DNA of 63,222 bases, counting the filler, from an uncultured bacterium (GTDB lineage: Bacteria; B130-G9), in NCBI GenBank assembly GCA_965372715.1. It is 3 parts of 3 records of this genome, joined end to end, with 100 filler letters (N's around TTAATTAATTAA, not from the genome) between each part and the next. Parts side by side here need not be neighbours in the genome. Positions count along the whole stretch, not along the records: positions 52,241 to 63,222 come from CBDVDH010000081.1; 2 more parts are not named here. One strand, 5' to 3'. Shown piece after piece: positions 12,479 to 63,222 of the stretch. The stretch's first letter is position 1; each line of letters starts with the position of its first letter. A program made the position numbers and the translations under genes. The notes beneath the pieces were generated by a model. That model worked only from the letters and a program-made list of their open reading frames with translations, was not told the origin of the DNA and ran no database searches.

Positions 12479-12514
12479 CACATCGCATAGAGCACCAACG
12501 GGGTTTTCTTTCTT

Positions 12515-12639: not shown

Positions 12640-12654
12640 CGACGTTTCTGCCGC

Positions 12655-13128: not shown

Positions 13129-13172
13129 GATTGTCGGAATCGCCCCTCACACTCGTCGGACTTGGCAATAGA

Positions 13173-38577: not shown

Positions 38578-38727
38578 ATCAGCCTCCCGTATAAAAAAGA
38601 ATCCTATATTCTATTGCGCCCCTGTCCTTGGGCGCTTCTTTTTACAATACTACGTAAGCCCCGAAGCCATCGAGGCATTTCAACCAGACAGCGCTTCTTA
38701 TCTTAACCAAACAGCAATCATGGGGGA

Positions 38728-39768: not shown

Positions 39769-39840
39769 TCTCTATACCTCCCAGACTATGAAACGCCATC
39801 GGCTCTGGATCAAAAGCCGCTTTCGGAGCAGGCTCAAACA

Positions 39841-40488
39841 TCAAAACTCCTCGCTCGGGGCTTCTGCGCCCGGCGAAGGAACCGCCTCAGCCAACTCCTT
39901 CAGCTGATATGTCTCAAGCTCCATTCTCACACGTATCCCCGGAATATCGAACTCGCCCAGCTTCTCATCTGGGGTCATTCGGCGAGCCTCCACCCACTTG
40001 ATATTCACAAGCCTATCAAGATAGCCCAGACCCTCAATGAACCCAACCAGGTCCTTGAACCTACAGTCAAGATCGTCGATCCGAATCGGTATAACATAAA
40101 AGGTAAGGTCGCTCCCCGGCAAAGTGTGGGGATAGCTCTCGAGCGGCCGCATCGGCAGTTGATTGATGCTGGCTCGCTGAGCGGTCGAGGCAAACTGCTC
40201 CAGAACAGTTGGGAGGTTGTAAGTATCAGGGACCTTAAGCATCAGGACCTTGGCCTCCTCCTTCATCCTCGCCAGGAGCAACTTCTTTTCCGGAAGGTGC
40301 GAAAGGTGTTCTTTTGCCCGCACTATCTTCGCCTGCTCTCGCTCTGTCCTTATATTCAGCTCGCCCGTCTCCTTGATGATCGGATTGAATAATACGAGAT
40401 ATACAACCACGAGCAAGACTACGGCGCTGCCAGCAACAATCCCAATCCTGGCGCCCGCCGGAAGCTCCCTAAACCGTCCTAATGCCAT
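39841..40488 (-). CDS. PilO/GspM-like alignment subunit
   Basis: TM, coiled coil, then F.DL..FI..L..LDRLVNI. Confidence 0.8.
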   Translation of the reverse strand: MALGRFRELPAGARIGIVAGSAVVLLVVVYLVLFNPIIKETGELNIRTEREQAKIVRAKEHLSHLPEKKLLLARMKEEAKVLMLKVPDTYNLPTVLEQFASTAQRASINQLPMRPLESYPHTLPGSDLTFYVIPIRIDDLDCRFKDLVGFIEGLGYLDRLVNIKWVEARRMTPDEKLGEFDIPGIRVRMELETYQLKELAEAVPSPGAEAPSEEF

Positions 40489-40514
40489 ATCAAACTACCC
40501 CGTTAATCCTCATG

Positions 40515-42296: not shown

Positions 42297-42357
42297 GTCG
42301 TATGACCTCGGTTATTGCCCAAAGCCCTGGGCATCACTCAATCAATGTCTATCTAAA

Positions 42358-43110
42358 CTACTTGTATCCTTCAGTTCCAGCAACCGGAAACCAATAACTT
42401 CGCGCATAACCCGTCCCAGCTATTAGAAGGACTATGTCGTCCCTATTGCCAGGGTATAGCTCGTCCTCTGATTTCATCTTCGGCGTGGTGCTCGGGGGCA
42501 CGTTTGTATGTTTCTGGTCCCGCCCCTTGCTGGCGATAAACACACGCGCCGCTTGAACTGGGACAGCCAAATACCCAGAACCCTCCGCGCCCTCTGTGGG
42601 AATGTCCGTCGCAGGGTCCATGTAAACCACGTAGTAATCAGGATAGGAAACATACGCGTATTCCTGATCCCACGCATCGAAATAGAAACCCCTTTCATCA
42701 TCACTATCCGCTATGTACGGCCCGTTCCAACCCATACCAGCTGATGGATCGTAACCGGCCTCCGGCGCCGTGTACGCATAGGCCTTGCCGCTGCTGTCGC
42801 ACGGCAGCAAAAAGCCGCGATTCGTCTTCGTCGCCGCAAGCATCCTCAATCCGGAGAACGGCTCGCCGCTGCCATCAGTCACCCACGTCGGCGGCCACTT
42901 GTTCACGTGCTCGTAATAACGCGTTATCGCGGTGCGGATATTCGCCATCTCCTGCCGAGTGGCCGTCTCGTTCCCCTCGTCCAAGACGTTGAAAACAAGC
43001 GGCGTTATAATCCCAGCCAGAAGAGCTATAATCGCTATCACCACAACCATCTCGACTATGGTGAAGCCTTTTTTGCAGTTGTCTCGCAACATATCCCTAG
43101 ATCCGATCAT
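42358..43110 (-). CDS. Type IV pilin / GspG-like pseudopilin
   Basis: KKG|FTIVE class III signal; WNGPY, DAW...Y, S.G.D, DDI. Confidence 0.9.
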   Translation of the reverse strand: MIGSRDMLRDNCKKGFTIVEMVVVIAIIALLAGIITPLVFNVLDEGNETATRQEMANIRTAITRYYEHVNKWPPTWVTDGSGEPFSGLRMLAATKTNRGFLLPCDSSGKAYAYTAPEAGYDPSAGMGWNGPYIADSDDERGFYFDAWDQEYAYVSYPDYYVVYMDPATDIPTEGAEGSGYLAVPVQAARVFIASKGRDQKHTNVPPSTTPKMKSEDELYPGNRDDIVLLIAGTGYARSYWFPVAGTEGYK

Positions 43111-43174
43111 CGGTCAACACCTCGCCTTTCTCTGCAAAATGCAGCGGCGCCCGACAACTAAGCCAAATTATTGT

Positions 43175-44389
43175 CTATTTCTTGATAAACCCTATCATCG
43201 TATAAAGCGGCAAGAAGACCGACATGGCGACGGTACCGACTATCGCGCCCATCGAAACGATCATCAAAGGCTCTGCAATCGCGAAGATCCTTCTAATCGT
43301 ATAAGGGACTTCTTTGTCGTAGTAAACGCTGACCTTCTCAAGCGTCATGTCGAGCTCGCCAGTCTCGTCCCCAATCGCAACCATCCGCAGAACGAGCGAA
43401 GGAAACTCCCCGCTCTCCGCAAGCGCCTCGGGCATCGAGCCGCCAGCCCGGATCCTGTCGTGAGCATCCCGGATTACGTCACCCAAAATCACGTTGCCGA
43501 TGACCTGCTCAACGATCCTCAAGCACTCAGTGATCTCAACGCCCGCGCGATAGAGTGCGGACATCGTGTGCGAGAACCTGGAAAGCGCAACCTTCCTTAT
43601 CAACGACCCAAATAACGGAAGCTTCAGCTTCGTAGCGTCCCAGATTCTCCTGCCCGTCTTTGTCTTCTTGACTAGCGCCCGAATAACAAAGGACAAAACT
43701 ACGAGAAAAACAAGGCTATAAAACCCATAGTTGAGCATGAAATTGCTTATCCCGATGACGATGCGCGTCGGAAGTGGCAGCTTCATGTCGTATTTCCTGA
43801 AGATGGCCGCAAACCGCGGTATCGGAAACACAAAGAGAAAAACGATAACACCACTGATGACCGTCAGAACGACCGCAGGATACGCGAGCGCCTCGCGAAT
43901 CTGCCCTTTAAGCTCCTCTTGCCATTCCATGTATGGCACGAGCCTCTCGAGAACCTCGTCAACCCGGCCTGTCGTCTCGCCCGCGCGAACCATGCTGACG
44001 TAAAGCTGGCCGAAGACCGCCGGATGAACGCTCATCGCATCCGCGAGCATGGAGCCGTTCTCAACCTGCTTGGTGATGTCATGGATGACCCGCTTGAAAC
44101 CGGGCTTCTCCGTCTCACGCGCTAGGTCCTGAAGGCCCGTAAGAAGAGGAACCCCTGCCGAGAGAACAGTGCCAAGGTGGATCGTGAAAGTGATAAGCTC
44201 ACGGCGCTTGACCTTCGCGCTCCTAACCTTGCGCTTCTTGGCATCCCTGCCGCGCGCCTTCGATACTTTCGTTACTACGTAGCCGAGCTCGCCAAGCCGC
44301 TCAACGAGGACCCCGGAGTTCTCAGCCTCCAAAACCCCCTCGGTCTCGCGACCACTCGCGTCTCTAGCCTTATACGAAAATACAGGCAA
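43175..44389 (-). CDS. Inner-membrane platform protein (PilC/GspF)
   Basis: AGVPL, MVRAGETTG, ALAYP, LPLPT, IGDETGEL, EP. Confidence 0.95.
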   Translation of the reverse strand: MPVFSYKARDASGRETEGVLEAENSGVLVERLGELGYVVTKVSKARGRDAKKRKVRSAKVKRRELITFTIHLGTVLSAGVPLLTGLQDLARETEKPGFKRVIHDITKQVENGSMLADAMSVHPAVFGQLYVSMVRAGETTGRVDEVLERLVPYMEWQEELKGQIREALAYPAVVLTVISGVIVFLFVFPIPRFAAIFRKYDMKLPLPTRIVIGISNFMLNYGFYSLVFLVVLSFVIRALVKKTKTGRRIWDATKLKLPLFGSLIRKVALSRFSHTMSALYRAGVEITECLRIVEQVIGNVILGDVIRDAHDRIRAGGSMPEALAESGEFPSLVLRMVAIGDETGELDMTLEKVSVYYDKEVPYTIRRIFAIAEPLMIVSMGAIVGTVAMSVFLPLYTMIGFIKK

Positions 44390-44410
44390 AACTCCCTCGC
44401 TTCATTAGCC

Positions 44411-46183
44411 TTAGAGCTCTACCTCTGCCGAAAGCAGAGTGACCCTGCGAACCTCATCGACTGTTGTTATGCCTTGCATTACCTTGTTCATGCCGTCGGT
44501 GAACATCGAATCCATGCCGAACTTCCTTGCCGCACGCCTGATGTCCTCAATTGAGGCGTTCTTCTCCGCCATCATCTGGAGCCTCTTGTTCATCACGATG
44601 ACCTCGAAGATCGCTGTCCGACCCTTGTAACCCGTCTGATTGCAGTATGAACAGCCCTTGCCACGATAAAGCGCCAGAACCTGATCCTTCCGCTGGATCG
44701 CCTCTTTGTCCTGAACAACCGACTCGAGCGCATCAAGCCCCAAGGTGCCCTCGATCGACTCCCTGTGAAGCGCCAGAATCCTCGAGTCCTGCTCCGTGGG
44801 CTCATAGGACTCTCGGCAGTTGGGGCATATCAAACGCACCAGTCGCTGAGCCATGATGCCTAGTATCGATGACGAGACGAGAAACGGCTCAATACCCATG
44901 TCCATGAGCCTCGGCAGCGCGCCAGCAGCATCGTTCGTATGTAGAGTCGAAAGCACCAAGTGCCCTGTCAGAGCAGCCCTTACGGCAAGCTCCGCCGTCT
45001 CGCTATCCCTGATCTCTCCGACCAAAATGACGTCCGGGTCCTGCCTGAGCATCGAACGCAACCCCAACGAAAACGTAAAGCCCGCCTTAGGATTGATCTC
45101 GGACTGCTGGATAATCGGCAGCTGATACTCGACCGGGTCCTCAAGAGTGCAGACCTTTCTCTCCAAGGTGTTCACGTGTGAAATGGCGGAGTAAAGCGTC
45201 GTCGTCTTGCCGCTCCCCGTCGGCCCTGTAACGAGAATGATCCCATAGGGCATATCCAGAAGCGCCTCGAGCTCCTTCTTTTCCTTAACGGGGAAACCGA
45301 GCTTCGTTAGGTCAAGCTGCAACGTTGCACGGTCAAGCAATCTAAGAACGGCATTCTCACCCGTAACAGTCGGATATACCGAGACACGAATGTCAATCTT
45401 GCGCTTGCCAACGCTGAACTCAATCTTCCCGTCCTGAGGGATACGACGCTCTGCAATGTTAAGATCCGACATGATCTTGATTCTCGAGATTATCGGCTCT
45501 CTCAAATCCAACGGCACAGTCTTTCTCTGATGCAGAATGCCATCGATCCTGAACCGGACGCGCATGAGCTTCTCGTCAGGTTCAAAATGGATGTCCGTAG
45601 ATCGCTCGCGAACCGCCTGAACGATTATCCTGTCCACCAGCTTGATGATCGGAGCCTGTGAGGCGGCCTCCTCGATCTCTCCGAAGCCCGCTTCACCTCG
45701 CCTCTTCAAAGTCGCTTCGGCCATGCGCATGCCTTCATCGATGATCTCTTCCACATCCTCTTCGCTGCCGTAGAACTTATCGAGCGCCTTTTCGAGGTCC
45801 TGGTCGGTAACCGCAAGCGGCCGGATCTGTAAACCGGTTCGGCGCTCCAACCCGTCGATGACGTTCACGTCGTACGCATTGACCATCGCGACAGTCAGCG
45901 TGAAATCGTCCTTTGAAAGAGGTAATACGCTGTTTTCTTTGCAGAAATCGGACGATACCAATTTCAGAACATCTTCGCCGATCTCAGCCTCGGATAGATC
46001 AATCTCAGAACGACCACCCTCGCCCGAAAGCGCATCAACGAGGGCGTCCTCGGAAATGAATCCAAGGTCGAACAGTATCTGCCCGAGCAGCTCTCCGGTC
46101 CTTTTTTGCTCGCTTAACGCCAACTCGAGCTGCTGGTCGTCTATCAGGCCAAGTTCCCTTAGCTTTTCGCCTAGCAACGCCAT
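44411..46183 (-). CDS. Assembly ATPase (PilB/GspE)
   Basis: N-terminal LLGEKL..G..LGQIL (MshEN-like), GPTGSGKTT, LRQDPDVILVGEIRD, STLHTN, CxxC..CxxC. Confidence 0.96.
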   Translation of the reverse strand: MALLGEKLRELGLIDDQQLELALSEQKRTGELLGQILFDLGFISEDALVDALSGEGGRSEIDLSEAEIGEDVLKLVSSDFCKENSVLPLSKDDFTLTVAMVNAYDVNVIDGLERRTGLQIRPLAVTDQDLEKALDKFYGSEEDVEEIIDEGMRMAEATLKRRGEAGFGEIEEAASQAPIIKLVDRIIVQAVRERSTDIHFEPDEKLMRVRFRIDGILHQRKTVPLDLREPIISRIKIMSDLNIAERRIPQDGKIEFSVGKRKIDIRVSVYPTVTGENAVLRLLDRATLQLDLTKLGFPVKEKKELEALLDMPYGIILVTGPTGSGKTTTLYSAISHVNTLERKVCTLEDPVEYQLPIIQQSEINPKAGFTFSLGLRSMLRQDPDVILVGEIRDSETAELAVRAALTGHLVLSTLHTNDAAGALPRLMDMGIEPFLVSSSILGIMAQRLVRLICPNCRESYEPTEQDSRILALHRESIEGTLGLDALESVVQDKEAIQRKDQVLALYRGKGCSYCNQTGYKGRTAIFEVIVMNKRLQMMAEKNASIEDIRRAARKFGMDSMFTDGMNKVMQGITTVDEVRRVTLLSAEVEL

Positions 46184-52240: not shown

Positions 52241-52273
52241 AAGGGCGGTTAAAGAGTGGTGGTGACGGTGTCA

Positions 52274-52612
52274 TTATTTAACCTTCCGTGCTTCGATCCA
52301 TCCATCAATTAGGTCGGCGAGCGTCTCGCTGATGAGGTCCCCGCCAAATGTTAACGTAATATCCCCGGCATAATCGCCGCTACCGATCATGTCACCGCCC
52401 GCTGCATCCAATACGCGATTAGCGACGTGGTGGCAGTGCTCCGCGCGAGCCGCTACGCGCATCAAGTCCGTTCTCCGGTTGTGCTCGTCGCATATTGTGC
52501 GTGTAGCCGACTCGCGCCCCATAAGATACGCATAGGCTATCAGCCCTTGCGGGGTGTTTGGCTCGCAGTGCGTGCTCACGCAATCATTAACTAGTTGTTT
52601 TGCTGTCTTCAT
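52274..52612 (-). CDS. Phage hypothetical protein
   Basis: ORF with GGAGAG RBS-like sequence, divergent from the packaging operon. Confidence 0.6.
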   Translation of the reverse strand: MKTAKQLVNDCVSTHCEPNTPQGLIAYAYLMGRESATRTICDEHNRRTDLMRVAARAEHCHHVANRVLDAAGGDMIGSGDYAGDITLTFGGDLISETLADLIDGWIEARKVK

Positions 52613-53047
52613 TTTCTCTCTCCTTGGTTGGTTGTTCCGTCTCTCATGCAATCATATACAAGCAGACCCCATGCCAACCCGCAAACCCCCTACCACCGCA
52701 AACCCCGTAACTCACTGAATCTCAACACGTTACATCACAAATAAACTCACGAGATATCTACCGCTTGACAGATTCACCGCGTTTCCCTCGCATTGTTGCA
52801 ACACTGCAAACCCGGTTTTGAGAGGATGAGAAAGTTATTCCGATTCCTGTAGTTTCAAATTGCCCATATCTGGAATAAGATCATTTTAGTGACTGTCTAT
52901 TTTTTTTGTCAACCTCATTCGGGCCATTCAATGCGTGTTTTTATTAAGCAAAATGCGTATATGGCTTGTATACAACGGTTTGTAACAACAAAAAAAGTTT
53001 GGATTTCTCTTGACGAAGGGGGATATTTGGGGGTAGGAGGTTGGGTT

Positions 53048-53434
53048 ATGAGCAAACCTGTCAAGCACGAGCCGACACGGAAACCCTCCCCCGCCAAGAA
53101 ATTCCCGAAGAAGCGCAAAAAGAAACCGTCGCGCGAAAATGATGGGCGATGGAAAGCGGGACAGAGCGGCAATCCGAAAGGTCCGCCCAGACGCCCAGAA
53201 ATACAGCAATTACGCGAGGCGCTGGCAGAGGTTGCTAAGGCCAACGGGGGCAAGACGTTTTTGCGGCATTTTGTTGAGCAAAGCTACAAAGATACCAATA
53301 TCGCAATTGCGCTGGCCAAGAAAATCCTGCCCGACCTGATCTCTGCGGAACTGGATATGTTGCGGGATTTGCCGTCTGAAGAAGTTGTCCGGCGGATTCT
53401 GGAGGCGATTGACAAGCGCGGGGGTAAATCGTAA
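53048..53434 (+). CDS. Probable terminase small subunit (DUF5681-like)
   Basis: GRWKAGQSGNPKG motif, AGGAGG RBS, stop overlaps the TerL start. Confidence 0.75.
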   Translation: MSKPVKHEPTRKPSPAKKFPKKRKKKPSRENDGRWKAGQSGNPKGPPRRPEIQQLREALAEVAKANGGKTFLRHFVEQSYKDTNIAIALAKKILPDLISAELDMLRDLPSEEVVRRILEAIDKRGGKS

Positions 53435-54951
53435 TGGTTGCGCCTGTCTATGATCCCTATTCAGATTGCGCTCATCCTCGGATCATCGAGTTGGCGGGGA
53501 ATCGTGACCGATTAACCAAGCTGAGCCAGCCGGACCGGCTGGATGTGTTGGACTACGTGACCTCCCCAATGCGCAACTTTTTCCCAAATCGCGGGCAAAA
53601 AGAGATAATCCAGTCCACGGCCCAGAAAATCCTTGTTGCCGGAGCGAACAAGTCCGGCAAGACCGAGCTGGGCGGGCATGTATTTTGTTACCATATGACC
53701 GGTTGGTATCCCGACTGGTTCCCGGAGGCAAACAAGCTCAAGGGCAAGATCAGGGGTTGTATCGTTGTTCCCAATTTCAAAGAGGCGGCTGGGGCTGAGA
53801 TTGAGCCCTATCTTTTCAATATGATCCCCCAGTCGCTGATTGACCGGCGGCGTTGCCACAAAAACGAGGTGGGGGTCACAACCAAATGGCACCTCAAAAA
53901 CGGCAATACGTTCACGATTATGTCCTGCGAGCAGAAACCGATGGCGTTTGAGACGATCGTGGCGGACTTCGTCTGGGTCAATGAGCCGATCCCCAGGGAC
54001 AGATATATAGCCTTGGTCAAAGGATTTATGGTCACGCACGGCAAATTGATGATTACCGCGACGCTGCTTGAGCATGTATGGGTCTGGGATGAGTTCATTG
54101 ATTCCAACGATCCCGACAAGCGCTATTTCACGATGGACATTTCCGACAATCTTGAGGTTAACGGCGGAGTGCTCATCCAAAAGGACATTGACGATTTCGC
54201 TAGTGGGCTTGATATCGACGAGCGGGACGTGCGTCTGCACGGTCGCCCTCAGCATCTGGTGGGCATGATCTACAACCGGGTGGGCCTGTTCCAGCCGGAC
54301 ATTCACGTTCAGGATTTGAGCGGGCTCGACTTCAGGGATTCCAGCAAATACGCCCTGAGTGTTACCCTGGATCCTCACGACACCACGCCGCATGCGTTGG
54401 TCTGGAGAGCCGTGGACAAGACCGGCACCTGCTACTATTTCGATGAGGGATGGATTGACGGTGACTACGCCGATATGGCCGAGTACATCAAGGCTCACGA
54501 GATGGCCATGGGTCCAGTCATGCAGCGGACGATTGACCCCAATTTCGGTGTCAAGACCTACGGAAACTCCAAAAAGACCGTGATTCAGGAGCTGGAGGCG
54601 CACAAGTTGTATTTCGTTCCGGGCTTGGATGCGCTTGAGGAGGGCCATATCAAGGTCAAGTCCGGGCTCAAGTACGACCCGGACAAGAAATTGGGCATGG
54701 GCAATTACCCCCGCATCATCATCGGGCGCAACTGCACGCACATAATCAAGAGCCTCAGCCGGTATGCCCGGACCAAAGCGGGCAAAATCACTGAGGAATG
54801 GAAGCACTTTTGCGACTGCGTGCGCTACGACCAGATGAGCAACCCCAAATTTGTTGAGACCAAGCGGGCCGCCCCCAAACCTCAATACCATCAGCGACGT
54901 GCGCAGATGAGCCACGCGGGCAAAGAGCGTCGCCGGAGAATTCCTGCATGA
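53434..54951 (+). CDS. Terminase large subunit
   Basis: Q motif (PNRGQ), Walker A GANKSGKT, Walker B-like FVWVNEP, TAT coupling motif, nuclease LDPH..HFCDCVRY. Confidence 0.9.
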   Translation: MVAPVYDPYSDCAHPRIIELAGNRDRLTKLSQPDRLDVLDYVTSPMRNFFPNRGQKEIIQSTAQKILVAGANKSGKTELGGHVFCYHMTGWYPDWFPEANKLKGKIRGCIVVPNFKEAAGAEIEPYLFNMIPQSLIDRRRCHKNEVGVTTKWHLKNGNTFTIMSCEQKPMAFETIVADFVWVNEPIPRDRYIALVKGFMVTHGKLMITATLLEHVWVWDEFIDSNDPDKRYFTMDISDNLEVNGGVLIQKDIDDFASGLDIDERDVRLHGRPQHLVGMIYNRVGLFQPDIHVQDLSGLDFRDSSKYALSVTLDPHDTTPHALVWRAVDKTGTCYYFDEGWIDGDYADMAEYIKAHEMAMGPVMQRTIDPNFGVKTYGNSKKTVIQELEAHKLYFVPGLDALEEGHIKVKSGLKYDPDKKLGMGNYPRIIIGRNCTHIIKSLSRYARTKAGKITEEWKHFCDCVRYDQMSNPKFVETKRAAPKPQYHQRRAQMSHAGKERRRRIPA

Positions 54952-55376
54952 ACCAAGGGAGAGACGACATGAATGCAGCAGAGATGATATATTTCGTAAC
55001 GGCAACCGAGGGCGGTCTTTTCACGGGCGTTACATGCCCGCGATGCAGTCCGCGTGCAGTTGTGCGCCGGTTGCGCAAGGCGGCTAAGCCATGGATTGTT
55101 CTGTTTGAAGATGGGCAAATTTACGATGGGTTCCTAGGCCGCAAGGCCCGATGGACTAGGAGCGTTGACCGCGCAGGCACTCAAAACCGGTTTGTGCGCT
55201 TGCAAGCAATGACCCTAGAACGCGCGTCAGGCGTTGTTGTCGGTCCTGAGAACAGAAATCTCCTCATTGCGATACACGACAGAAAAGGGACGCGCGGTTG
55301 GCCCGCAAACATGTTCTTGCGCGAGTTGGCCCGCTGGCTCGACATCACAGAAGCAATATCCTATGAAAATCCTTAA
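54948..55376 (+). CDS. Phage hypothetical protein with CxxC
   Basis: Overlaps both the TerL stop and the portal start. Confidence 0.5.
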   Translation: MNQGRDDMNAAEMIYFVTATEGGLFTGVTCPRCSPRAVVRRLRKAAKPWIVLFEDGQIYDGFLGRKARWTRSVDRAGTQNRFVRLQAMTLERASGVVVGPENRNLLIAIHDRKGTRGWPANMFLRELARWLDITEAISYENP

Positions 55377-57108
55377 ACTCAATTTCCAGAACGAGGCCGA
55401 ACTGGTCACTTTCGTGTTGGAGAAATTCGACTCGGTCGAGAAGTGGCGGGTGGGCTACGAGTCGCGCTGGCAGCGGTACTATGAGACCTACCGGAGCTAC
55501 CAGGAGTTCCTGCCTGAGTTCTGGCACCGGTCGCAGCATTTCATTCCGTACCCGTTTGCCCTGCTTGAGGGGATTACGCCGGAGATAGTAGAGGCCACAA
55601 TCGGCGCAAACGACTTCTTTGCGGTTGACCCAGCGGACAATGTCAACGATGACGAGGGCATCAAAGAGCAGGCCCACATGATGCAAAACATGATGCTCTA
55701 CCAGTTCAACGAGCGCATGGACTTCTCCCGCAAGGCGGTTGACTGGATCAAGGGCACGCTGATATTCGGGACTGGAATCCTCAAGGACGGTTGGCGGGAA
55801 GAGATTGAGATGATCTCAACACGGACTTGGCGCGAGGCCGAGGGCGGGCGCGACTACGAGGACAAAGAGGCTAAGTCAATCAAGTCCAATCCGTATATGC
55901 GTCCGTTGAGTATTCTCGATTACTACCCTGACCCGTTCGGTCGTTTTGCGCTGGACCGGGAATTGGTGGATTACGATCAACTGGAGAAAGAGGAGAAAGA
56001 GGGCATGTGGGCGGTGGGCACGGTTAAAGCGCTGGCCAGCACGTCGTTACCGACTCAGGCACTGGCCGCGTGGCGTAAATCCAGTGACATCAAATTGGCC
56101 GAGGAGCCCGCGCAGAAGCTGATCGAGAACATGGTTGAGCTTGTCCACTATTGGGACAATGGCAAGACCATCACTATCGCCAACCGCAAAGTTGTGGCAC
56201 GGGGAATGCCTACTAATCCACTACCGCACAAGACGTTACCGTATTCGATACTGACGGACATGCCTGTTTTCGGCGAGCTGTACGGGATAGGTGAGATCGA
56301 GGCTATGGGCGATCTGCCGGAGATTTGCAATATGCTGCGTAATGCCGACATTGACGACGTGCTCAGTTCGATCAATCGCCAGTATGTCGCCAACCAGACA
56401 GACGCCTACGGTCTGAACCCTGATCTGATTATCAATGCGCCTGACAAGATTATCTGGTCCAACGATGTTAACAACGCGATCAAAGAAATCCCCCGACACC
56501 CGGCCACCGGCACGGCGCGAGAGGCGGCGGGGAAATTCCACGCGGACATGAAAGACGCTATCGGTCATTTTGACTATGCCCGAGGAGAGACCCCAGAGCG
56601 CAAAGAGACAGCAACCGCAATCATCAAGCTGCAACAGGCGGCGGCCAAGCGTAACATGCTCAAGATCAAGATGTTCAGGCAGACCGGGTTCAAGGACTTT
56701 CTTACGCACGTAATGCGCAATAACCAGTATTTCATTACCGAATCGCAGATAATCAAGATGTTCGGCGACAAGGGGGCCGAGTGGAAGCGCTACAATCCGT
56801 GGGAGATTAACGCCGCCATGGACATAGTAATCAAGGGGCCTACGGATTTAGTAGCGGACAAAGAGAAGTTCCTCGTTTTCTACGAGCACGCCATACAGGC
56901 GGAAGGCGTATGGAGTTTGTTGGAACTCAACAAGCGACTGGCTGAGGTATTCTCCATCACCGCCCCGGCGGAACTGCTCGCGCCTGAACAGCCTGCACCT
57001 GAACAGGGCGGCATGGGCGGGATGCCGGGCGCGATGGGTGGGGCTCCCGGTCCTCAAGGACAGGGCGGAGCGCCTACTCAGCAAATGCTGGCGATGGGGG
57101 GCATGTAA
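55363..57108 (+). CDS. Portal protein (P22-like)
   Basis: FGTGILK.GW, DYYPDP, GELYGIG..E, ETATA; about 580 aa with a Gly/Met-rich tail; follows TerL. Confidence 0.88.
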   Translation: MKILKLNFQNEAELVTFVLEKFDSVEKWRVGYESRWQRYYETYRSYQEFLPEFWHRSQHFIPYPFALLEGITPEIVEATIGANDFFAVDPADNVNDDEGIKEQAHMMQNMMLYQFNERMDFSRKAVDWIKGTLIFGTGILKDGWREEIEMISTRTWREAEGGRDYEDKEAKSIKSNPYMRPLSILDYYPDPFGRFALDRELVDYDQLEKEEKEGMWAVGTVKALASTSLPTQALAAWRKSSDIKLAEEPAQKLIENMVELVHYWDNGKTITIANRKVVARGMPTNPLPHKTLPYSILTDMPVFGELYGIGEIEAMGDLPEICNMLRNADIDDVLSSINRQYVANQTDAYGLNPDLIINAPDKIIWSNDVNNAIKEIPRHPATGTAREAAGKFHADMKDAIGHFDYARGETPERKETATAIIKLQQAAAKRNMLKIKMFRQTGFKDFLTHVMRNNQYFITESQIIKMFGDKGAEWKRYNPWEINAAMDIVIKGPTDLVADKEKFLVFYEHAIQAEGVWSLLELNKRLAEVFSITAPAELLAPEQPAPEQGGMGGMPGAMGGAPGPQGQGGAPTQQMLAMGGM

Positions 57109-57431
57109 TGTTCGGCGAAAAAGGCAAGCGAACGGCGGGTTTGGAAAAGACTTTGGCGGCGCTCGAAGCCCGGCGCGGGAGTAGCCAAACCGGAGCCTGG
57201 CAGAACACGCTCAGTCCATACATCAAGGACGTGGCGAAAAAGGCGCATGATGCATGGCACGCGACAGAGATTGACGGCCTGACAGACAGCGAGATCGTGC
57301 GCAACCTGATAGCCCAGCGGGCAACGGTCAAAGCGTTGCAGGGCATTATTGATTTCGTGGAAGGAAACGAACAGCGGATCAAACAGATTCGTGCGGATTT
57401 GGAGAAAATAGAGAAGGGCAGGAAGAAATGA
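57108..57431 (+). CDS. Phage hypothetical coiled-coil protein
   Basis: Start overlaps the portal stop (TAATG). Confidence 0.75.
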   Translation: MFGEKGKRTAGLEKTLAALEARRGSSQTGAWQNTLSPYIKDVAKKAHDAWHATEIDGLTDSEIVRNLIAQRATVKALQGIIDFVEGNEQRIKQIRADLEKIEKGRKK

Positions 57432-57718
57432 GCAGGAAGAAACCTACAGCACTTGGCGCGAAACTCGCAGGCGTGCTCATGCACGATTTAGTCAAACCGG
57501 GGAAGAAGAAGCTGTACGGGATAGGTGAGATCGGCGAATACAAACCGTCACTCAGTTTGACGCATAGGCGGATCCCTGAACTGAAGAACAGGAAGCCCGG
57601 CGATACGATAAAGATGATTGTGCAGGGGATTATCAACTCTGTTGATTTACATCAGGATCGGGACGGGGAGAATCGGGACCAGAGTTCAGTGGAAATTGAC
57701 AAGATCGGCGTAGCATAG
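57428..57718 (+). CDS. Phage hypothetical protein
   Basis: ATGA overlap with the preceding gene. Confidence 0.7.
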   Translation: MSRKKPTALGAKLAGVLMHDLVKPGKKKLYGIGEIGEYKPSLSLTHRRIPELKNRKPGDTIKMIVQGIINSVDLHQDRDGENRDQSSVEIDKIGVA

Positions 57719-57776
57719 TGCCGCGCTGAAACAGTAAACGAACCCGCCACGGTGCGGGTAAACAAGGAGAAAGACC

Positions 57777-58787
57777 ATGACCGAAGAACGTACACTAGAA
57801 GAGATTGAGGCCGAAACCAAGGCAGCGGAGATTGCTGCGGCGGAAGCTGTAGACGACGATCAGCTTATTGATCTTGGGCCGGACGATGAGGGTATTTTGG
57901 GCGCAGCGACTGCTCCTGAGCCGGAAGAGACCCAAACGGCGGAAGAGCTTGCAGCCGATGCAAAGGTGAAAGAGGAAGCCGCCGAGGCCGTAGAGGCCGC
58001 GAAGAAGGCGGAAGAGTCTCGCGAACAGGGAACGGAAGAGACTGATTGGGACTATCTGCAACGCTCGCGCCATTTCAGCGAACCGGAAGACCTCGCCAAA
58101 TCCTACCGCGAACAGGAGCGTCATCAGACGGTATCGGATCAGGAAAAGGCCAAATACCGTAAGACGCTTGAACAAGCGGGCTACACATTCGGTGAGGATG
58201 GCGAGCCTGTAGCGCCGGAAGTCACGGCGGAACCTGAACATAAACCAACCCTGCATCCGCTCACCGCTGAACAGCTTGCCGAGCAGGCGGAGGAGCGCAA
58301 GGCATATTTTGACGAACAATTTGAACAAGACCCCGTATCGGTCATCAGCTCGATTGTGCAAAACGCATTGAGCAAACAGATGGCCCCGCTAGAACAGCGG
58401 CAACATGAAGAGGATATGGGGAATCTAGTAGATACAGTAATCGGGGAAATGGATAAAGCCACCCCCGGCATGGGAAAGAAAATCGACGAACATGGTGACG
58501 CAGTTGTCAAAGCTCTGGCGGATATGCCCCAAGCATGGAAAGCATCCGACCCGAAGCGCGCAATAAAGCTCGCCATCCACGAAGCACTTGAGGGTTCTTC
58601 ACCCGTGAGCGCGGAGGTAAAGCCGGTAACTGACACCGCAGCAGTAGAGGCCGCGAAAAATGCGGCTGGTGGTGGTAATGGGAAACCTACCCCGTTCACA
58701 CGTCCAGACAATGAAGCGGACGAGGAGAAGAAAGTCCAGGAGGCGCTATTAGCAGAGAAACCCGAAGATGCATTTTGGAAACAATAA
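57777..58787 (+). CDS. Probable capsid scaffolding protein
   Basis: Highly acidic and helical, EDLAKSYRE motif, immediately before the capsid gene, AAGGAG RBS. Confidence 0.75.
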   Translation: MTEERTLEEIEAETKAAEIAAAEAVDDDQLIDLGPDDEGILGAATAPEPEETQTAEELAADAKVKEEAAEAVEAAKKAEESREQGTEETDWDYLQRSRHFSEPEDLAKSYREQERHQTVSDQEKAKYRKTLEQAGYTFGEDGEPVAPEVTAEPEHKPTLHPLTAEQLAEQAEERKAYFDEQFEQDPVSVISSIVQNALSKQMAPLEQRQHEEDMGNLVDTVIGEMDKATPGMGKKIDEHGDAVVKALADMPQAWKASDPKRAIKLAIHEALEGSSPVSAEVKPVTDTAAVEAAKNAAGGGNGKPTPFTRPDNEADEEKKVQEALLAEKPEDAFWKQ

Positions 58788-58808
58788 CACTAGAAAAAGG
58801 AAAAAATC

Positions 58809-59963
58809 ATGGCATTAACAATAATTAGCGGTACGAGGGGTACTGCAAACATCAACTCGAATCGCCGGAAGATCGACGTTAAAGACGTGATCTACCAGCT
58901 GGATCCGGATTCCGCGCCATTGCTGTCGCTGATGATGCGGTTGCGCAAGGAGAAAGCGACCAACGAGGAATTCAAGATGTTCACCGATGAACAGATTCCG
59001 CGCTGGATGCAAATTAACCACGGCGCTGGCTACAGTGACAGTGATACCGAGTTCGTGATTGACGACGATGACGAAGACAATCTGAAGATCGGCGACATGG
59101 TCAAGATTGCGCGAACCGGTGAAGTAATGATTGTGAGTGCTACCAACACCAGCACACACACATTCTCCACGGCTTCACGGTCTTGGGGTTCCACGGCAGC
59201 GGCTGCGATTGTTGATAACGACTGGATTGTCAATCTTGGCAATATCAGTGAGCAGGGCGGGACCAGTCCGGCGATCAGAAGTACGCAGATTGGTCAGGTC
59301 ACGAACTACTGTGAGATCATCAAGACGCCGTTTGAGGTCACGAATACGCAGGATGCCTCTGACCTGTATGGTGGGCCGGACATCGGGTACCTGACCAAGA
59401 AGGACTTGGTTGAGCACAAAATCGACATCGGCAGGAAGTTCCTTGCAGGTGAGAAGATCCGCAATACAGGCGGCTCACAGCCCAAGTGTTCAACGGGCGG
59501 CGTGCTGGAGTTCCTGGCCGATTACACGGATACCGACGCGGCGCTCACGGAGAAGGATTTTGACGAGTGGATGGAGACACCGTTCAAGTACGGTAACAAC
59601 ACTCGGAAGATCCTGTTCGCGTCCGGTATTATAATCCGGGCAATGAACTTCTGGGCGAAGAGCAAGTTGATCTTCACCAGTTCCGAGAAAACCTATGGGG
59701 TCAGCATTGCTACGTATGCGACACCGTTCGGCCCGCTGAAAGTCATTTATGACCGGATGCTTGTCAACGGGTATGCCGGATACGGCGTGTTGCTGGACAT
59801 GGACAATCTCGCGTATAAGTATCTGCGTGATACACGCTTGGAAAAGAACATCCAGGCGAATGATGCCGACACCATCAAGCATCAGTACCTGACCGAGGCC
59901 GGATTGAAGATCGTGCACCCGAAAACTCACAGAGTGCTCAAGGGAGTAACGTCCTTCTCATAA
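58809..59963 (+). CDS. Major capsid protein (HK97 fold, SU10/DUF5309-like)
   Basis: D..P...PLLS, EQG..P..NYCEI.K, TGG, EAGL..HPK.H pattern; 384 aa. Confidence 0.85.
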   Translation: MALTIISGTRGTANINSNRRKIDVKDVIYQLDPDSAPLLSLMMRLRKEKATNEEFKMFTDEQIPRWMQINHGAGYSDSDTEFVIDDDDEDNLKIGDMVKIARTGEVMIVSATNTSTHTFSTASRSWGSTAAAAIVDNDWIVNLGNISEQGGTSPAIRSTQIGQVTNYCEIIKTPFEVTNTQDASDLYGGPDIGYLTKKDLVEHKIDIGRKFLAGEKIRNTGGSQPKCSTGGVLEFLADYTDTDAALTEKDFDEWMETPFKYGNNTRKILFASGIIIRAMNFWAKSKLIFTSSEKTYGVSIATYATPFGPLKVIYDRMLVNGYAGYGVLLDMDNLAYKYLRDTRLEKNIQANDADTIKHQYLTEAGLKIVHPKTHRVLKGVTSFS

Positions 59964-59993
59964 TGGGCGGCTTCCGAAAAAGATAACGCTGCG

Positions 59994-60021
59994 GCTTCCC
60001 CTCTCTTCGGGGAGGGGAGGC
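59994..60021 (+). terminator. cUUCGg-capped stem-loop after the capsid gene (no U tract)
   Basis: gcttcccctctc-TTCG-gggaggggaggc. Confidence 0.5.
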
Positions 60022-60042
60022 GGCTCAACAGGAGATAAGACA

Positions 60043-60381
60043 ATGGCTAAGAAATCCAAAGAAGCAGAACCAGTCGAAGTCGAACAGGAAGAGGTCGATG
60101 TAGTCGAGGAGGCAGTCGAACAGGAAGAGGTCGAGGAAGAGCCCAAGAAACCCAAGAAACCCAAGGAGCCCAAAATGACGCGCTTCATCTCAAAGGGCAA
60201 GCACATCACGGTTATGCTCAGGCCCTCGCGCACATCTATTGTCGATGGCCAGCAAGTGCTGGTACACGATCGCATTCTTGCGAAGTTCGAGAATGGTGTG
60301 TTTGAGACGAACGACAAGTACGTCATCAAGCTGGCGAAGAAAAGCCCGTCATGCGGCGTTGATTACGTTTGCGCCGACTAG
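60043..60381 (+). CDS. Phage hypothetical protein with acidic and Lys-Pro repeat N-terminus
   Basis: AGGAG RBS; duplicated gtcgaacaggaagaggtcga; PKK repeats. Confidence 0.8.
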   Translation: MAKKSKEAEPVEVEQEEVDVVEEAVEQEEVEEEPKKPKKPKEPKMTRFISKGKHITVMLRPSRTSIVDGQQVLVHDRILAKFENGVFETNDKYVIKLAKKSPSCGVDYVCAD

Positions 60382-60411
60382 ACGGAAACAAAAGAAAGAT
60401 TGGGAAAGAAA

Positions 60412-61875
60412 ATGAAAAAACTAAGTGTATTTTTAGCGGTCTGTTTAGTGGCCGGGACTGCCTTTGCGCTACGGCAGAATGAATGGAACTCTACACATGA
60501 GTTGATTCAGGGCGTGAACGCGGGGGAAAGCGGCACGATTCTGAGTGGTGCGGGAACGGATACCGTACCTACATGGACCGCAAGCCCGCCGTTGACATCG
60601 GTTGAGCTTGAGAACGGCGAGATAATCGCCAACGCGGTAGATGGTACGGTAACAATTACGGCGGATGATGATGCAACGAATCTGATTACCGTTGTGCTTG
60701 GAAGCTCTGTTACTAATGTGGCGGATGACGACCTGATAAACGTCCTGTTGCGTGCATATAACGACGTTGGCGAGTTGGTCGATTATGGGCGGATCAGATG
60801 CGAGTTGACCGATGTTACTACCAACACCGAAGACCTGACATGGTATTTCGATGCGGTGGTAAACGGCACAATGACCGAGGTTCTGAATTTCGGTAGTGGC
60901 GGGTTGGACCTTGCTACCGTGCTTGCTGTGGCAGAAGGCGGCGTAGGTGTCGGAACGCTTACCGATGGCGGCGTGTTGTTGGGAAGTGGTACCGGTGCGG
61001 TAACGCCCATGGGAGTCCTTGCCGATGGTTCGATTGTTGTCGGAGACGGCGCAACCGATCCGGTGGCACTGGCTGCGTTCTCATCCAGTACCGGCGATCT
61101 GCTGGTTACCGCCGGAGGTTCCGGGGCCGGGACATTCACGGATCATGGCGTGTTGCTGGGTTCCGGTACGAGCGCATTCACACCGACAGCCGTAGGCTCA
61201 AGCGGGGAACTCCTTATCGGGAATTCCGGCGCTGATCCGGGTTGGCAGGCGATGAGCGGAGACGGCACGATCGACTCCAACGGCGTGTTCGCCATTGCAG
61301 GCGGCGTACTCGTCAATGCTGATGTTGCCTCCGGTGCGGCTATTGCGCGGAGCAAGTTGGCAGAGGATGCCTTGCAGGTTTATGGCATACCGCTTTACAC
61401 CGTGCGGGCGGCTGATCTGGCCGGACTTGCATTGACCGAGACGGCGGGCGATCACTTCTTGTCTTTCTCGGCCAATGTCATCCTTATCAAGGGCGAGGTA
61501 TCAAGTAATGAGACGGAAACGTCTGTCTCATATTTTGAGTTTATTCTCCCGCCTGAGTATGTGGATGCGGGGGACGTACATGTCCGCCTGAATGCCCAGT
61601 ATTCCGGGGACGGCACGAATAATGTTTCTACGATTGACGTAAGCGCATATGAGCAGACGGATGGCGCGGTTGGCGGCGATCTTTGCGCGACAGCCGCTAT
61701 CAATCTGACGAACTCATTTGCAAATTGCGACTTCACGATAACCGCCACCGGCCTGGTTGCGGGCGATGTGCTGAACGTCAAGGTGACAACGGCCATTATC
61801 GAAGCTAGCGATGGACCGGCGGCTATGGAGGCGCAAATCGACAAGGTTGCAGTTCTAACGGACATCAAAGGATAA
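60412..61875 (+). CDS. Fibre/decoration-like protein with a Sec signal peptide
   Basis: MKKLSVFLAVCLVAGTAFA|; two V..GG.G.GT.TD.GVLLGSGT repeats; beta-rich C-terminal domain. Confidence 0.8.
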   Translation: MKKLSVFLAVCLVAGTAFALRQNEWNSTHELIQGVNAGESGTILSGAGTDTVPTWTASPPLTSVELENGEIIANAVDGTVTITADDDATNLITVVLGSSVTNVADDDLINVLLRAYNDVGELVDYGRIRCELTDVTTNTEDLTWYFDAVVNGTMTEVLNFGSGGLDLATVLAVAEGGVGVGTLTDGGVLLGSGTGAVTPMGVLADGSIVVGDGATDPVALAAFSSSTGDLLVTAGGSGAGTFTDHGVLLGSGTSAFTPTAVGSSGELLIGNSGADPGWQAMSGDGTIDSNGVFAIAGGVLVNADVASGAAIARSKLAEDALQVYGIPLYTVRAADLAGLALTETAGDHFLSFSANVILIKGEVSSNETETSVSYFEFILPPEYVDAGDVHVRLNAQYSGDGTNNVSTIDVSAYEQTDGAVGGDLCATAAINLTNSFANCDFTITATGLVAGDVLNVKVTTAIIEASDGPAAMEAQIDKVAVLTDIKG

Positions 61876-61886
61876 CAATTCGCGAC

Positions 61887-61941
61887 GGAAGGGAACGGCG
61901 GGGCATTAAGAGGTCTCTCCATGTTCTGCACGTTCCCTTCC
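61887..61941 (+). other. Long intergenic hairpin
   Basis: ggaagggaacg-gcggggcat..atgttctgc-a-cgttcccttcc. Confidence 0.6.
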
Positions 61942-61961
61942 ACAGAAAGGAAGAATGACAG

Positions 61962-62366
61962 ATGAGAAAGACAATACTTTCAGGACTGGTTTATCTTGGC
62001 TTGGTGTTCGCCGTAGTGGCGGGTTCCACATGGATAACCGATGAGGACGGGGACATAGCCGAAGTCAGCACGGCGGGGGCGCTCCTCGTTGACGCGGACT
62101 CAGCAACCGTTCGAACCGACTGGAACGCTTACTCGTTGACCGGTGCCGTCACTGAGGCGAGCCAGGCGCTTGGCCAGAATGTGACAGACACAGTCATAGC
62201 CAACGACGGATCAGCGGTTCTGCTGGTCGGGTTCGGCGCGTCAGTTACAAATAAATCGTGGGAGTTGAAGACTGGCGAGACCTTCTCCACGGGTCTTCAA
62301 TACAGCAACCTGTACTACAAAACCAGTTCGGGAACGGCGGAATTCCGCGTGTTCACTAGCTGGTAG
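61962..62366 (+). CDS. Small beta-rich virion-like protein with a Sec signal peptide
   Basis: MRKTILSGLVYLGLVFAVVA|; IAND..LLVGF..LKTGE beta-strand pattern. Confidence 0.75.
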   Translation: MRKTILSGLVYLGLVFAVVAGSTWITDEDGDIAEVSTAGALLVDADSATVRTDWNAYSLTGAVTEASQALGQNVTDTVIANDGSAVLLVGFGASVTNKSWELKTGETFSTGLQYSNLYYKTSSGTAEFRVFTSW

Positions 62367-62378
62367 GAGGATAGAGTG

Positions 62379-63222
62379 ATGAGAAAATTTATGGGCGTAT
62401 GGATACTGACGGCGGTTGTCCTGTTGATCGCTGGCGCGGGCTGGGGCTCGTCGTTGAACCAGAGCGGGGATGACAAGTACGTGAACGTGGATGGCGATAC
62501 GATGAGCGCCGCGCTTCGTGCGCCTCTATTTGTAAACACATTCAATTCAGGCGGAGACAGTAATTACAACTTCGCCGCAGGTGGTACAGGCAATGTGTTC
62601 GTTGGTGCAGGACTTGCCAACACTATAGGCGGTGGTAGGCAGAACGTTATTTCCAACGAGACGGACAGCACTATCGGCGGTGGCAGAAAAAACTCAACGG
62701 CGGGTGGTTACTCAACGATTGCTGGCGGAGAAAACAATCTGATTCACAAATATACAGATGGCTCTACTATCGGCGGCGGCAGCGCAAATATAATCTATAG
62801 AAATGGTGAGTCTGCCACGATCATCGGCGGTGACGGGAATCACATTGGGGACGGAACCAATGATGCAGTTTACTCTACAATCCTCGGAGGTTCAGGAAAC
62901 AAGACGCTGGGCAACTATTCTCTGGCCGCTGGGTTTATGGCGTACGCGACAAATGCAGGCGCGTTTGTATGGGCGGATTCTCAGGGGGTTGTGCAAGGGA
63001 CACATGGAAATGATTCGTTTACGATACGGGCTTTGGGTGGGGCCTATTTCATGAACGACGTTTGGGCATCAAGCAACATATATTCAAGGGGTTCGATAGT
63101 CACCACAGGAACCCCCGTCTACGTGGAGTCCGATCCTATTTGGACAGCCGCAAGCAACAGCATCCAACAGCAAATCACAAGCAACGATGCTGACCTGACA
63201 AACACGGTGAGCAAGACGGGCG
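62379..63222 (+). CDS. Tail-fibre-like protein with a Sec signal peptide (runs off the window; absent from the ORF track)
   Basis: AGGAGG RBS; MRKFMGVWILTAVVLLIAGAGWG|..YVNVDGDTM, repeated STIGGG..N, AFVWADS..FTIRA.GG, ESDPIW; no stop before the window end. Confidence 0.82.
   Translation, partial: MRKFMGVWILTAVVLLIAGAGWGSSLNQSGDDKYVNVDGDTMSAALRAPLFVNTFNSGGDSNYNFAAGGTGNVFVGAGLANTIGGGRQNVISNETDSTIGGGRKNSTAGGYSTIAGGENNLIHKYTDGSTIGGGSANIIYRNGESATIIGGDGNHIGDGTNDAVYSTILGGSGNKTLGNYSLAAGFMAYATNAGAFVWADSQGVVQGTHGNDSFTIRALGGAYFMNDVWASSNIYSRGSIVTTGTPVYVESDPIWTAASNSIQQQITSNDADLTNTVSKTG

Follow-up and report, generated by a model that had tools for sequence, protein, structure and literature searches.

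Tailed-phage particles assemble in the cytoplasm. Among their decoration proteins and head fibres, such as lambda gpD, T4 Hoc/Soc and phi29 gp8.5, several bind finished capsids when added from outside, and the small lipoproteins T5 Llp and Cor, which are encoded near host-recognition genes, are exported to block the receptor and protect progeny from it. The closest precedent for tailed-phage structural proteins bearing an N-terminal leader is found in phages of Cellulophaga baltica, where phi18:3 gp085-087 (KC821620.1) and phiSM gp08 (KC821616.1) have signal-peptide-like N-termini and carry the GenBank note 'structural protein, annotation based on experimental MS/MS proteomics analysis', a method that can also pick up abundant sticky secreted proteins in virion preparations. 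A literature search found no publication describing leader-bearing tailed-phage fibres and no published text discussing the Cellulophaga phage leaders; the paper behind the MS/MS notes was outside that search. The first-pass annotation of the locus described here had proposed an undescribed system, which agrees with the published literature as searched but not entirely with GenBank, where the leader-bearing Cellulophaga phage proteins are already annotated as structural. A review of decoration proteins (PMC7602432) has, in the available part of its text, 0 mentions of 'signal peptide'. Among cellular proteins, the mosaic adhesive trimer (MAT) fibres of Bdellovibrio are described as cell-surface proteins with a signal peptide, a trimeric phage-like fibre, an exchangeable tip and often a Peptidase_S74 chaperone (PMC10769870).

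The window, the whole stretch of 63,222 nucleotides that was analysed, consists of three contigs with N runs between them; the genes of interest are located on the third (52241-63222). This contig, approximately 11 kb long with 12 ORFs, is a fragment of a tailed phage that is uncultured and has a capsid gene of the SU10 type. A DUF5681 ORF and the large terminase gene are followed by the portal gene (SU10_portal), a scaffold-like ORF, the major capsid protein gene (58809..59963, + strand), a 112-aa ORF (60043..60381, + strand), and then ORF A (60412..61875), ORF B (61962..62366) and ORF C (62379..63221), all on the + strand. The capsid protein was assigned to the SU10 type by its match to PF17236 (SU10_MCP, E 3e-48) and to phrog_1328 (major head protein). 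Its best match in the cultured-phage database was Roseobacter phage CRP-810 (34% identity), none of whose annotated products 3' of the capsid gene suggests a leader-bearing fibre, and a single-sequence scan of IMG/VR with the capsid protein gave no match. The 112-aa ORF has an acidic N-terminal half, showed no leader by hydrophobicity, and had no family match in Pfam or PHROG searches.

ORFs A, B and C each begin with a signal-peptide-like N-terminus, at the coordinates and with the residues given in the first-pass annotation. A crude heuristic for the n-h-c pattern was applied, consisting of a basic n-region, an uncharged hydrophobic core and small residues at -3/-1 within a total of 15-35 residues; it was passed by 3/3 of these ORFs and by 0/9 of the other ORFs on the contig. 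Within the first 40 residues, the highest-scoring Kyte-Doolittle window of 12 residues reached 2.64 for ORF A, 2.74 for ORF B and 2.92 for ORF C, compared to at most 1.46 for the other nine (0.69 for the capsid protein), and by both measures the portal, scaffold and capsid proteins are without leaders, as had been claimed. As background, the heuristic was also passed by 20 of the 625 crude ORFs (90 aa or longer) in 40 related viral loci, 10 of these 20 being ORF A homologues, and by only 1 of 1469 internal-Met pseudo-N-termini. Given these rates, three adjacent leaders are far beyond chance. The ORF A leader comprises residues 1-19 (60412..60468, + strand) with A-F-A before the likely cut, although the heuristic also allows a site a few residues earlier and the exact position is a prediction. 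The ORF B leader is predicted to comprise residues 1-20 with V-V-A before the cut, and that of ORF C approximately residues 1-20 or 1-23, with A-G-A at its predicted site. Where the hydrophobic core ends, signal peptidase II substrates carry a lipobox (consensus [LVI][ASTVI][GAS]C). This was absent from the core ends of all three leaders: those of ORFs B and C lack Cys, and the only similar stretch in ORF A, L-A-V-C at residues 8-11, has Val at -1 and places the Cys within the core. By this heuristic the leaders are Sec-type signal peptides, most likely cut by signal peptidase I, and the three products are probably exported across the inner membrane.

It could be argued that no export takes place, and that the hydrophobic N-termini are either start-codon artefacts or segments buried structurally in the particle, as the textbook account of cytoplasmic assembly in tailed phages would favour. 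We consider this very improbable. No Shine-Dalgarno-preceded in-frame start was found 3' of the hydrophobic segment in ORF A, B or C, so that true starts downstream of these segments, which would have undone the original interpretation, have no candidate; upstream in-frame stops are close (11, 2 and 5 codons before the starts of ORFs A, B and C, respectively), and alignments of homologues begin at residue 1. In the related loci L045, L057 and L065 a hydrophilic extension of 60-75 aa precedes a similar helix and small-residue site, and therefore a mis-called start cannot explain the helix in these variants. Furthermore, the basic n-region, the core and the small-residue site are kept while the core sequence drifts, which is the behaviour of signal peptides rather than of buried structural helices.

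A second alternative is that the helices are inserted but remain uncut, acting as signal anchors, possibly of the signal-arrest-release (SAR) type, that would keep the fibres tethered at the periplasmic side of the inner membrane; collapse of the membrane potential by the holin would free them, so that release is timed with lysis. Phages are described as using such helices in SAR endolysins (PMC7312051, PMC7143992), the hydrophobic cores are fairly rich in Gly, Ala, Ser and Thr, and the long cytoplasmic extension in L045, L057 and L065 resembles that of a type II membrane protein. However, small residues occupy -3/-1 after the helix in 3/3 of the window ORFs, in 25/28 of the leader-bearing ORF A matches and in 84/96 of the leader-bearing ORF C matches. 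In L002, L005, L006 and L007, moreover, the hydrophobic cores vary while the sequence just past the putative cut is nearly constant, and this sharp onset of conservation makes anchoring without cleavage improbable.

ORF A encodes a protein of 487 aa in which the leader is followed by an N-terminal module, two fibre repeats and a C-terminal beta-sandwich tip. The N-terminal module (residues 20-164; 60469..60903, + strand) recurs in P0041, a leader-bearing protein, and in P0044/L045, which has the long hydrophilic extension and membrane helix. The repeats, two units of approximately 58 aa (60904..61260, + strand), also occur in numerous tail-fibre-like proteins without a leader, among which some have Peptidase_S74 or collar domains; of the 120 matches listed, many align with residues 160-280, some of them bearing PF13884, PF07484 or PF26209. 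A PHROG search gave phrog_2012, a minor tail protein (E 0.0011). In the cultured-phage database only the repeat region found matches, in 5 Ralstonia phage records, and a single-sequence IMG/VR scan with ORF A gave none. The C-terminal domain (residues 295-487; 61294..61872, + strand) was modelled with AF2, with block-mean pLDDT mostly above 90 over model residues 71-244. Using family alignments A1 and A2 and Foldseek searches of the PDB and BFVD, it was found to resemble carbohydrate-binding module (CBM) folds and phage fibre tips, at a modest query-normalised TM of no more than 0.45, with the Bdellovibrio protein Bd1399 (8okh) among the best fold matches.

A trimer model of ORF A residues 165-487 scored 0.84 against 0.00 for the best control, with a partner pLDDT of 91; the score mark was reached by 21/30 solved pairs and 0/23 single chains, a calibration made with two copies rather than three, and similarity to trimeric fibres of solved structure may account for the result. 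Separate runs agreed in at least 94% of contacts, which span the fibre-repeat region. ORF A is thus modelled as an intertwined homotrimeric fibre with a CBM-like tip. Classical phage fibres with CBM-like tips, such as the short tail fibre CBD of cyanophage A-1(L) (8ke9) and gp20 of mycobacteriophage Douge (8zdp), likewise combine a trimeric fibre with a beta-sandwich tip, and leaderless fibre proteins carry repeat units of the ORF A type, but the classical fibres lack export signals and are assembled in the cytoplasm, unlike what is predicted for ORF A. Decoration proteins and head fibres resemble the ORF A family in that their genes adjoin the capsid gene; no Pfam, PHROG or PDB sequence match linked the ORF A family to known capsid decoration proteins, and the present searches gave no sequence or fold match to any of them.

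ORF C, which is interrupted by the contig end after 281 aa, so that the true tail genes lie beyond the sequence analysed, consists of a leader, beta-roll repeats of the YadA/UspA1-head type (UspA1 head 3pr7, E 3.9e-4) and then a different stalk segment. Its search returned 706 matches, and 96 of the 120 listed have a hydrophobic N-terminus. The leader-bearing relatives listed are 500-1800 aa long and many are located on contigs of 100 kb to 1.5 Mb, and are therefore probably cellular. ORF C shares its repeats with secreted proteins of the MAT-like or 'tail fiber domain-containing' kind and has their combination of leader and beta-roll. These relatives carry a conserved beta-rich N-domain motif directly after the leader that is absent from ORF C, and enter a Peptidase_S74 domain at the point after the repeats where ORF C departs from them. 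The MAT-like proteins are also products of cellular genes, whereas ORFs A-C are located in a phage late operon. ORF C found no match in the cultured-phage database, while ORF C-like genes were found in 9 IMG/VR viral loci, 8 of them with a hydrophobic N-terminus.

ORF B (134 aa) has, after its leader, a linker and a jelly-roll domain of approximately 80 aa, and would be a small exported protein. Of its few relatives, two, P0242 (73% identity) and P0243, are above the hydrophobicity cut-off, the leader of a third (P0245) looks similar but scores lower than the cut-off, and five distant relatives of 89-101 aa are the bare domain. Between ORF B and P0242 the leader diverges more than the mature part. 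The fold search was non-diagnostic (best Foldseek E 4e-4, TM 0.37-0.47), and the reduced family alignment, from which P0244, a 988-aa repetitive protein, was left out as a probable low-complexity match, recovered no relatives in IMG/VR or JGI metagenome contigs. Small exported proteins are also encoded 3' of fibre genes in other loci, but are not ORF B homologues (best hmmsearch E 0.22), so that a fibre plus an exported partner is not one conserved pair. On the evidence of fold matches, repeat homology, the trimer model and the UspA1-head match, the earlier description of the mature parts as fibre- or lectin-like is well founded.

Scans of IMG/VR with alignments, and with the single proteins P0044 and P0041, gave matches. 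The alignment-based scan found relatives of the ORF A tip domain in 40 viral loci. A tree of the tip domain separated one clade in which 13/13 rows are leaderless from another in which 24/29 rows have a leader; at least four changes are needed on this tree, and 0/500 shuffles gave a number that low. A relative of an ORF A domain, with a hydrophobic N-terminus, was found directly 3' of a Pfam-confirmed capsid gene in L002, L003, L004, L005, L006, L018 and L045, and one small gene separates the two in L017, as in the window. The capsid genes preceding a leader-bearing gene belong to three families (PF05065, PF25209 and PF17236), and leaderless relatives are also found in head modules. It had been suggested that homologues be examined for retention of both the leader and the post-capsid position, and in these loci the combination recurs. 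The fibre of L059 had no match in the cultured-phage database.

These distributions also bear on whether ORFs A-C belong to the phage, as opposed to being cellular surface-protein genes placed beside phage genes by mis-assembly, or recent morons irrelevant to the phage. The contig is short and comes from a binned assembly, its tetranucleotide correlation with the two cellular contigs is 0.71-0.73, compared to 0.97 between those two, and ORF C has its relatives chiefly on long contigs; the first-pass annotation had named host-like mature domains as a refuting outcome, and ORF C is in part host-like. On the other hand, ORFs A-C have the same GC content (0.52-0.56) as the rest of the contig and are tightly spaced on one strand, and ORF C-like genes do occur in viral loci. 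The tip domain, found in 40 viral loci, was confined in a collection of 185,579 genomes to 3 short contigs from MAGs, with the labels Planctomycetota, Phycisphaerae and Hyphomicrobium, and these gave no prophage context and no firm host. In the atlas, ORF B and the ORF A N-terminal module have clusters labelled viral as their neighbours, which serves as a lead only. A consensus scan, which may not fit the host, found one promoter-like site in 57700-63222 (within ORF C) against 3.5 expected, and no terminator-like site with a T run flanking ORFs A-C. By these measures the genes lack the promoter and terminator of their own and the deviant composition that mark morons and are not a typical foreign insert, and a cellular or incidental origin is, in our estimation, highly unlikely.

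In the explanation that we favour, ORFs A-C are late genes, co-oriented with the head genes of a phage with an SU10-type capsid. The host Sec pathway would carry their products over the inner membrane, and signal peptidase I would most likely remove the leaders. Once periplasmic, ORF A would form an intertwined trimeric fibre with a tip of sugar-binding type, and ORF C a beta-roll fibre, while the particle, built in the cytoplasm, would meet the exported proteins only at lysis. At that stage they would most likely attach to the particle, serving as accessory head or side fibres that recognise glycans. Since several decoration proteins can bind finished capsids externally, attachment after lysis would be feasible. 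The whole chain, from export to attachment, seems to us a possibility of somewhat less than even weight, attachment being its most conjectural step, and the two-compartment morphogenesis put forward in the first-pass annotation is a reasonable interpretation. More doubtful, but still worth proposing, is that tailed phages with capsids of at least three families, in hosts of several phyla, form a widespread class that sends glycan-binding accessory fibres through Sec and completes the particle at or after lysis; the post-capsid slot and, in some lineages, the long conserved hydrophilic extension of the leader would be parts of this system.

The exported proteins might instead never join the particle, acting as free or envelope-bound lectins and fibres that cover the receptor, both on the infected cell and on debris from it, and so save progeny, block superinfection, or bind surface polysaccharide. 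We regard this as rather unlikely, yet a serious contender. The leaders themselves, the lectin-like tip of ORF A, the leader-bearing and probably cellular relatives of ORF C, and the example of the MAT fibres (PMC10769870) all point in this direction. The N-terminal module of ORF A is found in L045 although the capsid protein there belongs to a different Pfam family, and thus fits poorly with a capsid-specific anchor. Against this alternative, the slot behind the capsid gene recurs and leaderless relatives are found in head modules, no lipobox, beta-barrel or other outer-membrane anchor was found in the sequenced parts, and transcription with the late head genes would be late for superinfection exclusion. 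T5 Llp and Cor differ in being small lipoproteins, whereas ORFs A-C are fibre- or lectin-like and without a lipobox. The MS/MS-based notes on the Cellulophaga phage proteins also favour attachment to the particle. In phi18:3 three leader-bearing proteins are encoded consecutively, like ORFs A-C, and phiSM gp08 is located in the head module, between the portal and capsid genes. However, these proteins do not resemble ORF A or ORF C in sequence, their host belongs to the Bacteroidota, and their leaders end before Gln, Asn or Val, as opposed to the A-x-A type site in the window.

Tailed-phage assembly is presented in teaching as purely cytoplasmic. Were fibres for host recognition or decoration to mature in the periplasm and be added to the particle at lysis, virion composition would depend on host secretion and envelope chemistry, lysates would hold fibre-less particles alongside free fibres, and a new handle for host-range engineering and phage display would be available. 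If the proteins act on the host envelope instead, they would represent a large unrecognised class of phage-encoded exported lectins. Both readings can be tested in the cultured Cellulophaga phages.

The second contig of the bin carries secretin and pilus genes, with weak matches to the Amuc_1101 and Amuc_1098 families. These genes suggest a diderm host, perhaps of the PVC group, and because the composition of the phage contig differs, the link between that host and the phage is weak. Between ORFs A and B a strong RNA hairpin without a U tract was predicted (61887..61941, + strand), with a folding energy of -36.7 kcal/mol (z -4.4) that was equalled by 0/200 shuffles.

Three contigs, separated by runs of N, make up the window. 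Contig 3 (52241-63222) is an 11-kb fragment carrying 12 ORFs, all on the plus strand. Its genes include a DUF5681 ORF and the large terminase; portal and major capsid protein, both of SU10 type (capsid: PF17236, E 3e-48), lie on either side of a scaffold-like ORF. The capsid gene is followed by a 112-aa ORF (60043-60381) with a very acidic N-terminal half and no Pfam or PHROG match, and then by the three neighbouring late genes considered here: ORF A at 60412-61875 (487 aa), ORF B at 61962-62366 (134 aa) and ORF C at 62379-63221 (>281 aa), the last of which is cut by the contig end. Taken at its longest, the portal ORF (55234-57108) has a TTG start at 55234 and overlaps with the ORF before it; an ATG at 55363 is a better fit and was taken as the start (55360 in family searches). 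Tetranucleotide use correlates at 0.97 between contigs 1 and 2 and at only 0.71-0.73 between contig 3 and either, so the place of the phage contig in this bin is weakly founded. Contig 2 carries a type IV pilus/type II secretion cluster at 37081-46183 (secretin, PilM-like protein, PilB/GspE ATPase), whose weak matches to two Akkermansia-named families (Amuc_1098, Amuc_1101) hint that the organism is a diderm from the PVC group.

The N-termini that led the first-pass annotation to propose signal peptides on ORFs A, B and C, and none on portal, scaffold and capsid, are present in the sequence, and the proposal was borne out on both counts. The best 12-residue Kyte-Doolittle window in the first 40 residues reaches 2.64 in ORF A, 2.74 in ORF B and 2.92 in ORF C, compared with 1.46 or less in the other nine ORFs of the contig. 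A crude n-h-c test (basic n-region, uncharged hydrophobic core, small residues at -3/-1) was passed by all three and by none of those nine. The same test was passed by 20 of 625 crude ORFs from 40 related viral loci, ten of the 20 being ORF A homologues, and by 1 of 1469 internal-Met pseudo-N-termini. It had been considered that the true starts might lie downstream of the hydrophobic segments, but no Shine-Dalgarno-preceded start lies 3' of the cores, and upstream stops are close. No lipobox occurs in ORF A, B or C. Export of the three proteins is well supported and we regard it as likely; judging from their N-termini, the leaders would be cleaved.

Among 120 ORF A matches, 28 have a hydrophobic N-terminus, 25 of which pass the full n-h-c test; in the remainder, similarity is confined to the repeats. 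The C-terminal tip domain of ORF A was detected in 40 IMG/VR viral loci. As to whether these homologues keep the leader, a hydrophobic N-terminus is present in 13 of the 17 closer loci (a further one is 5'-truncated) and in 1 of the 23 distant ones. In a tip-domain tree of 42 rows, one clade is leaderless throughout (13/13) and 24 of 29 members of the other carry a leader. This distribution needs at least four changes, and none of 500 shuffles was as low. Rows omitted from the tree (L008, L009, L012, L015, L020-L022, L025, L027, L030, L038, L040 and L041) were mostly near-copies of retained ones; L015 is 5'-truncated and L012 encodes P0013. All three closer relatives of ORF B have a leader (two above the cut-off, P0245 below it), and five distant relatives consist of the bare domain only. 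Relatives of ORF C have a hydrophobic N-terminus in 96 of the best 120 of 706 proteins and in 8 of 9 viral loci. Signal peptides typically drift, with a variable core and constant sequence after the cut. The leader of ORF B has drifted faster than the mature part relative to its relative P0242, and in loci L002, L005, L006 and L007 the core is variable while residues just past the putative cut are near-constant.

The post-capsid position also recurs. In seven viral loci the gene immediately 3' of a Pfam-confirmed capsid gene has a hydrophobic N-terminus; six are of the tip-domain family (L002, L003, L004, L005, L006 and L018) and one is of the family of the ORF A N-module (L045). In L017, as in the window, one small gene separates the two. 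Three Pfam families are represented among the capsid genes at this slot (PF05065, PF25209 and PF17236). L055, L061 and L065 have the same layout with capsid matches below the Pfam cut-off, and in L063 the third and fifth genes after a capsid gene of SU10 type are leader-bearing. Leaderless small forms are found in head modules too (L019, L029, L031). Two to five such genes, with hydrophobic N-termini, stand in a row in L058, L059, L061 and L062, the two of L063 being set apart. On the 48-kb viral contig L058, a stretch of six neighbouring ORFs of this kind (7657-13234) surrounds a 928-aa fibre-like gene, and several of their leaders end in A-Q. The post-capsid fibre genes of L045 (10001-11995), L057 (9107-10915) and L065 (8651-11026) begin with a hydrophilic extension of 60-75 aa that contains a common motif, ahead of a membrane helix and a small-residue site; because the extension precedes it, the helix is no start-codon artefact. 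The architecture would be the same, in a version with a long leader or with a type II anchor, and large secreted adhesins have extended leaders of similar layout. For ORFs A, B and C, which carry small residues at -3/-1, a non-cleaved or signal-arrest-release type anchor seems improbable.

ORF A is modular. Only P0041 and P0044 share its N-module (residues 20-164). Next come two fibre repeats, each about 58 aa long (165-283), also found in many tail-fibre-like proteins, some with Peptidase_S74 or collar domains. The C-terminal domain (295-487) was modelled by AlphaFold with 34 relatives as a beta-sandwich, block-mean pLDDT being mostly >90. Its best PDB matches are carbohydrate-binding modules, a MAM domain, Bdellovibrio Bd1399 and phage fibre tips (cyanophage A-1(L) short tail fibre, Douge gp20), with E-values of 1e-5 to 1e-3 and modest TM-scores; 260 BFVD matches at E <=1e-3 include minor tail and S74 fibre proteins. 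Modelling supports an intertwined trimer for residues 165-487. The three-copy model scored 0.84 against 0.00 for the best control. In a calibration on two copies, not three, 21 of 30 solved pairs attained that mark and none of 23 single chains did. Contacts agreed between runs at >=94% and partner pLDDT was 91; resemblance to solved fibres may account for the pass. ORF B has a confidently predicted jelly-roll domain of about 80 aa, for which the fold search gave no diagnostic match. ORF C has beta-roll repeats resembling trimeric-adhesin heads (UspA1 3pr7, E 3.9e-4), common to the 706 proteins, which are longer. Most of the best 120 of these end in Peptidase_S74, and many are encoded on contigs between 100 kb and 1.5 Mb long, so these relatives of ORF C are probably cellular. 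ORF C diverges after the repeats, where its relatives enter the S74 domain. Bdellovibrio MAT proteins, as described in PMC10769870, are cellular and surface-displayed, with a signal peptide, N-domain, trimeric fibre and variable tip. The main rival to attachment to the phage particle, an exported lectin or fibre working on host envelope or debris, is rather unlikely in our view.

ORFs A, B and C do not look like an autonomous moron, because their GC content (0.52-0.56) matches the contig, consensus scanning gave a single promoter-like site, located within ORF C, where 3.5 were expected, and around the genes it gave no T-run terminator. The 86-nt gap between ORFs A and B holds an RNA hairpin (61887-61941; -36.7 kcal/mol, z -4.4, 0/200 shuffles as stable) with no U tract, which could act by attenuation or by stabilising the mRNA, and so set how much of A is made relative to B and C. 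In Cellulophaga phage phi18:3 the consecutive gp085, gp086 and gp087 each have a leader-like N-terminus, as does phiSM gp08 (identical to phi3:1 gp8), and GenBank notes on these proteins read 'structural protein, annotation based on experimental MS/MS proteomics analysis'. We tentatively favour a full chain in which the exported proteins would join the phage particle at lysis, because of the capsid-adjacent slot, the leaderless head-module relatives, the fibre homology and the Cellulophaga notes. Its weak points are an N-module that does not track capsid family, the kinship of ORF C and the incomplete contig. A literature search found no paper on export signals of tailed-phage fibres or decoration proteins, and for a decoration-protein review (PMC7602432) it gave 0 occurrences of 'signal peptide'. 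In phi3:1, gp9 'pectate lyase' (KC821630.1, 2155-5439; 1094 aa) also has a leader-like N-terminus and is encoded between the portal and capsid genes, adjoining the leader-bearing structural protein gp8.
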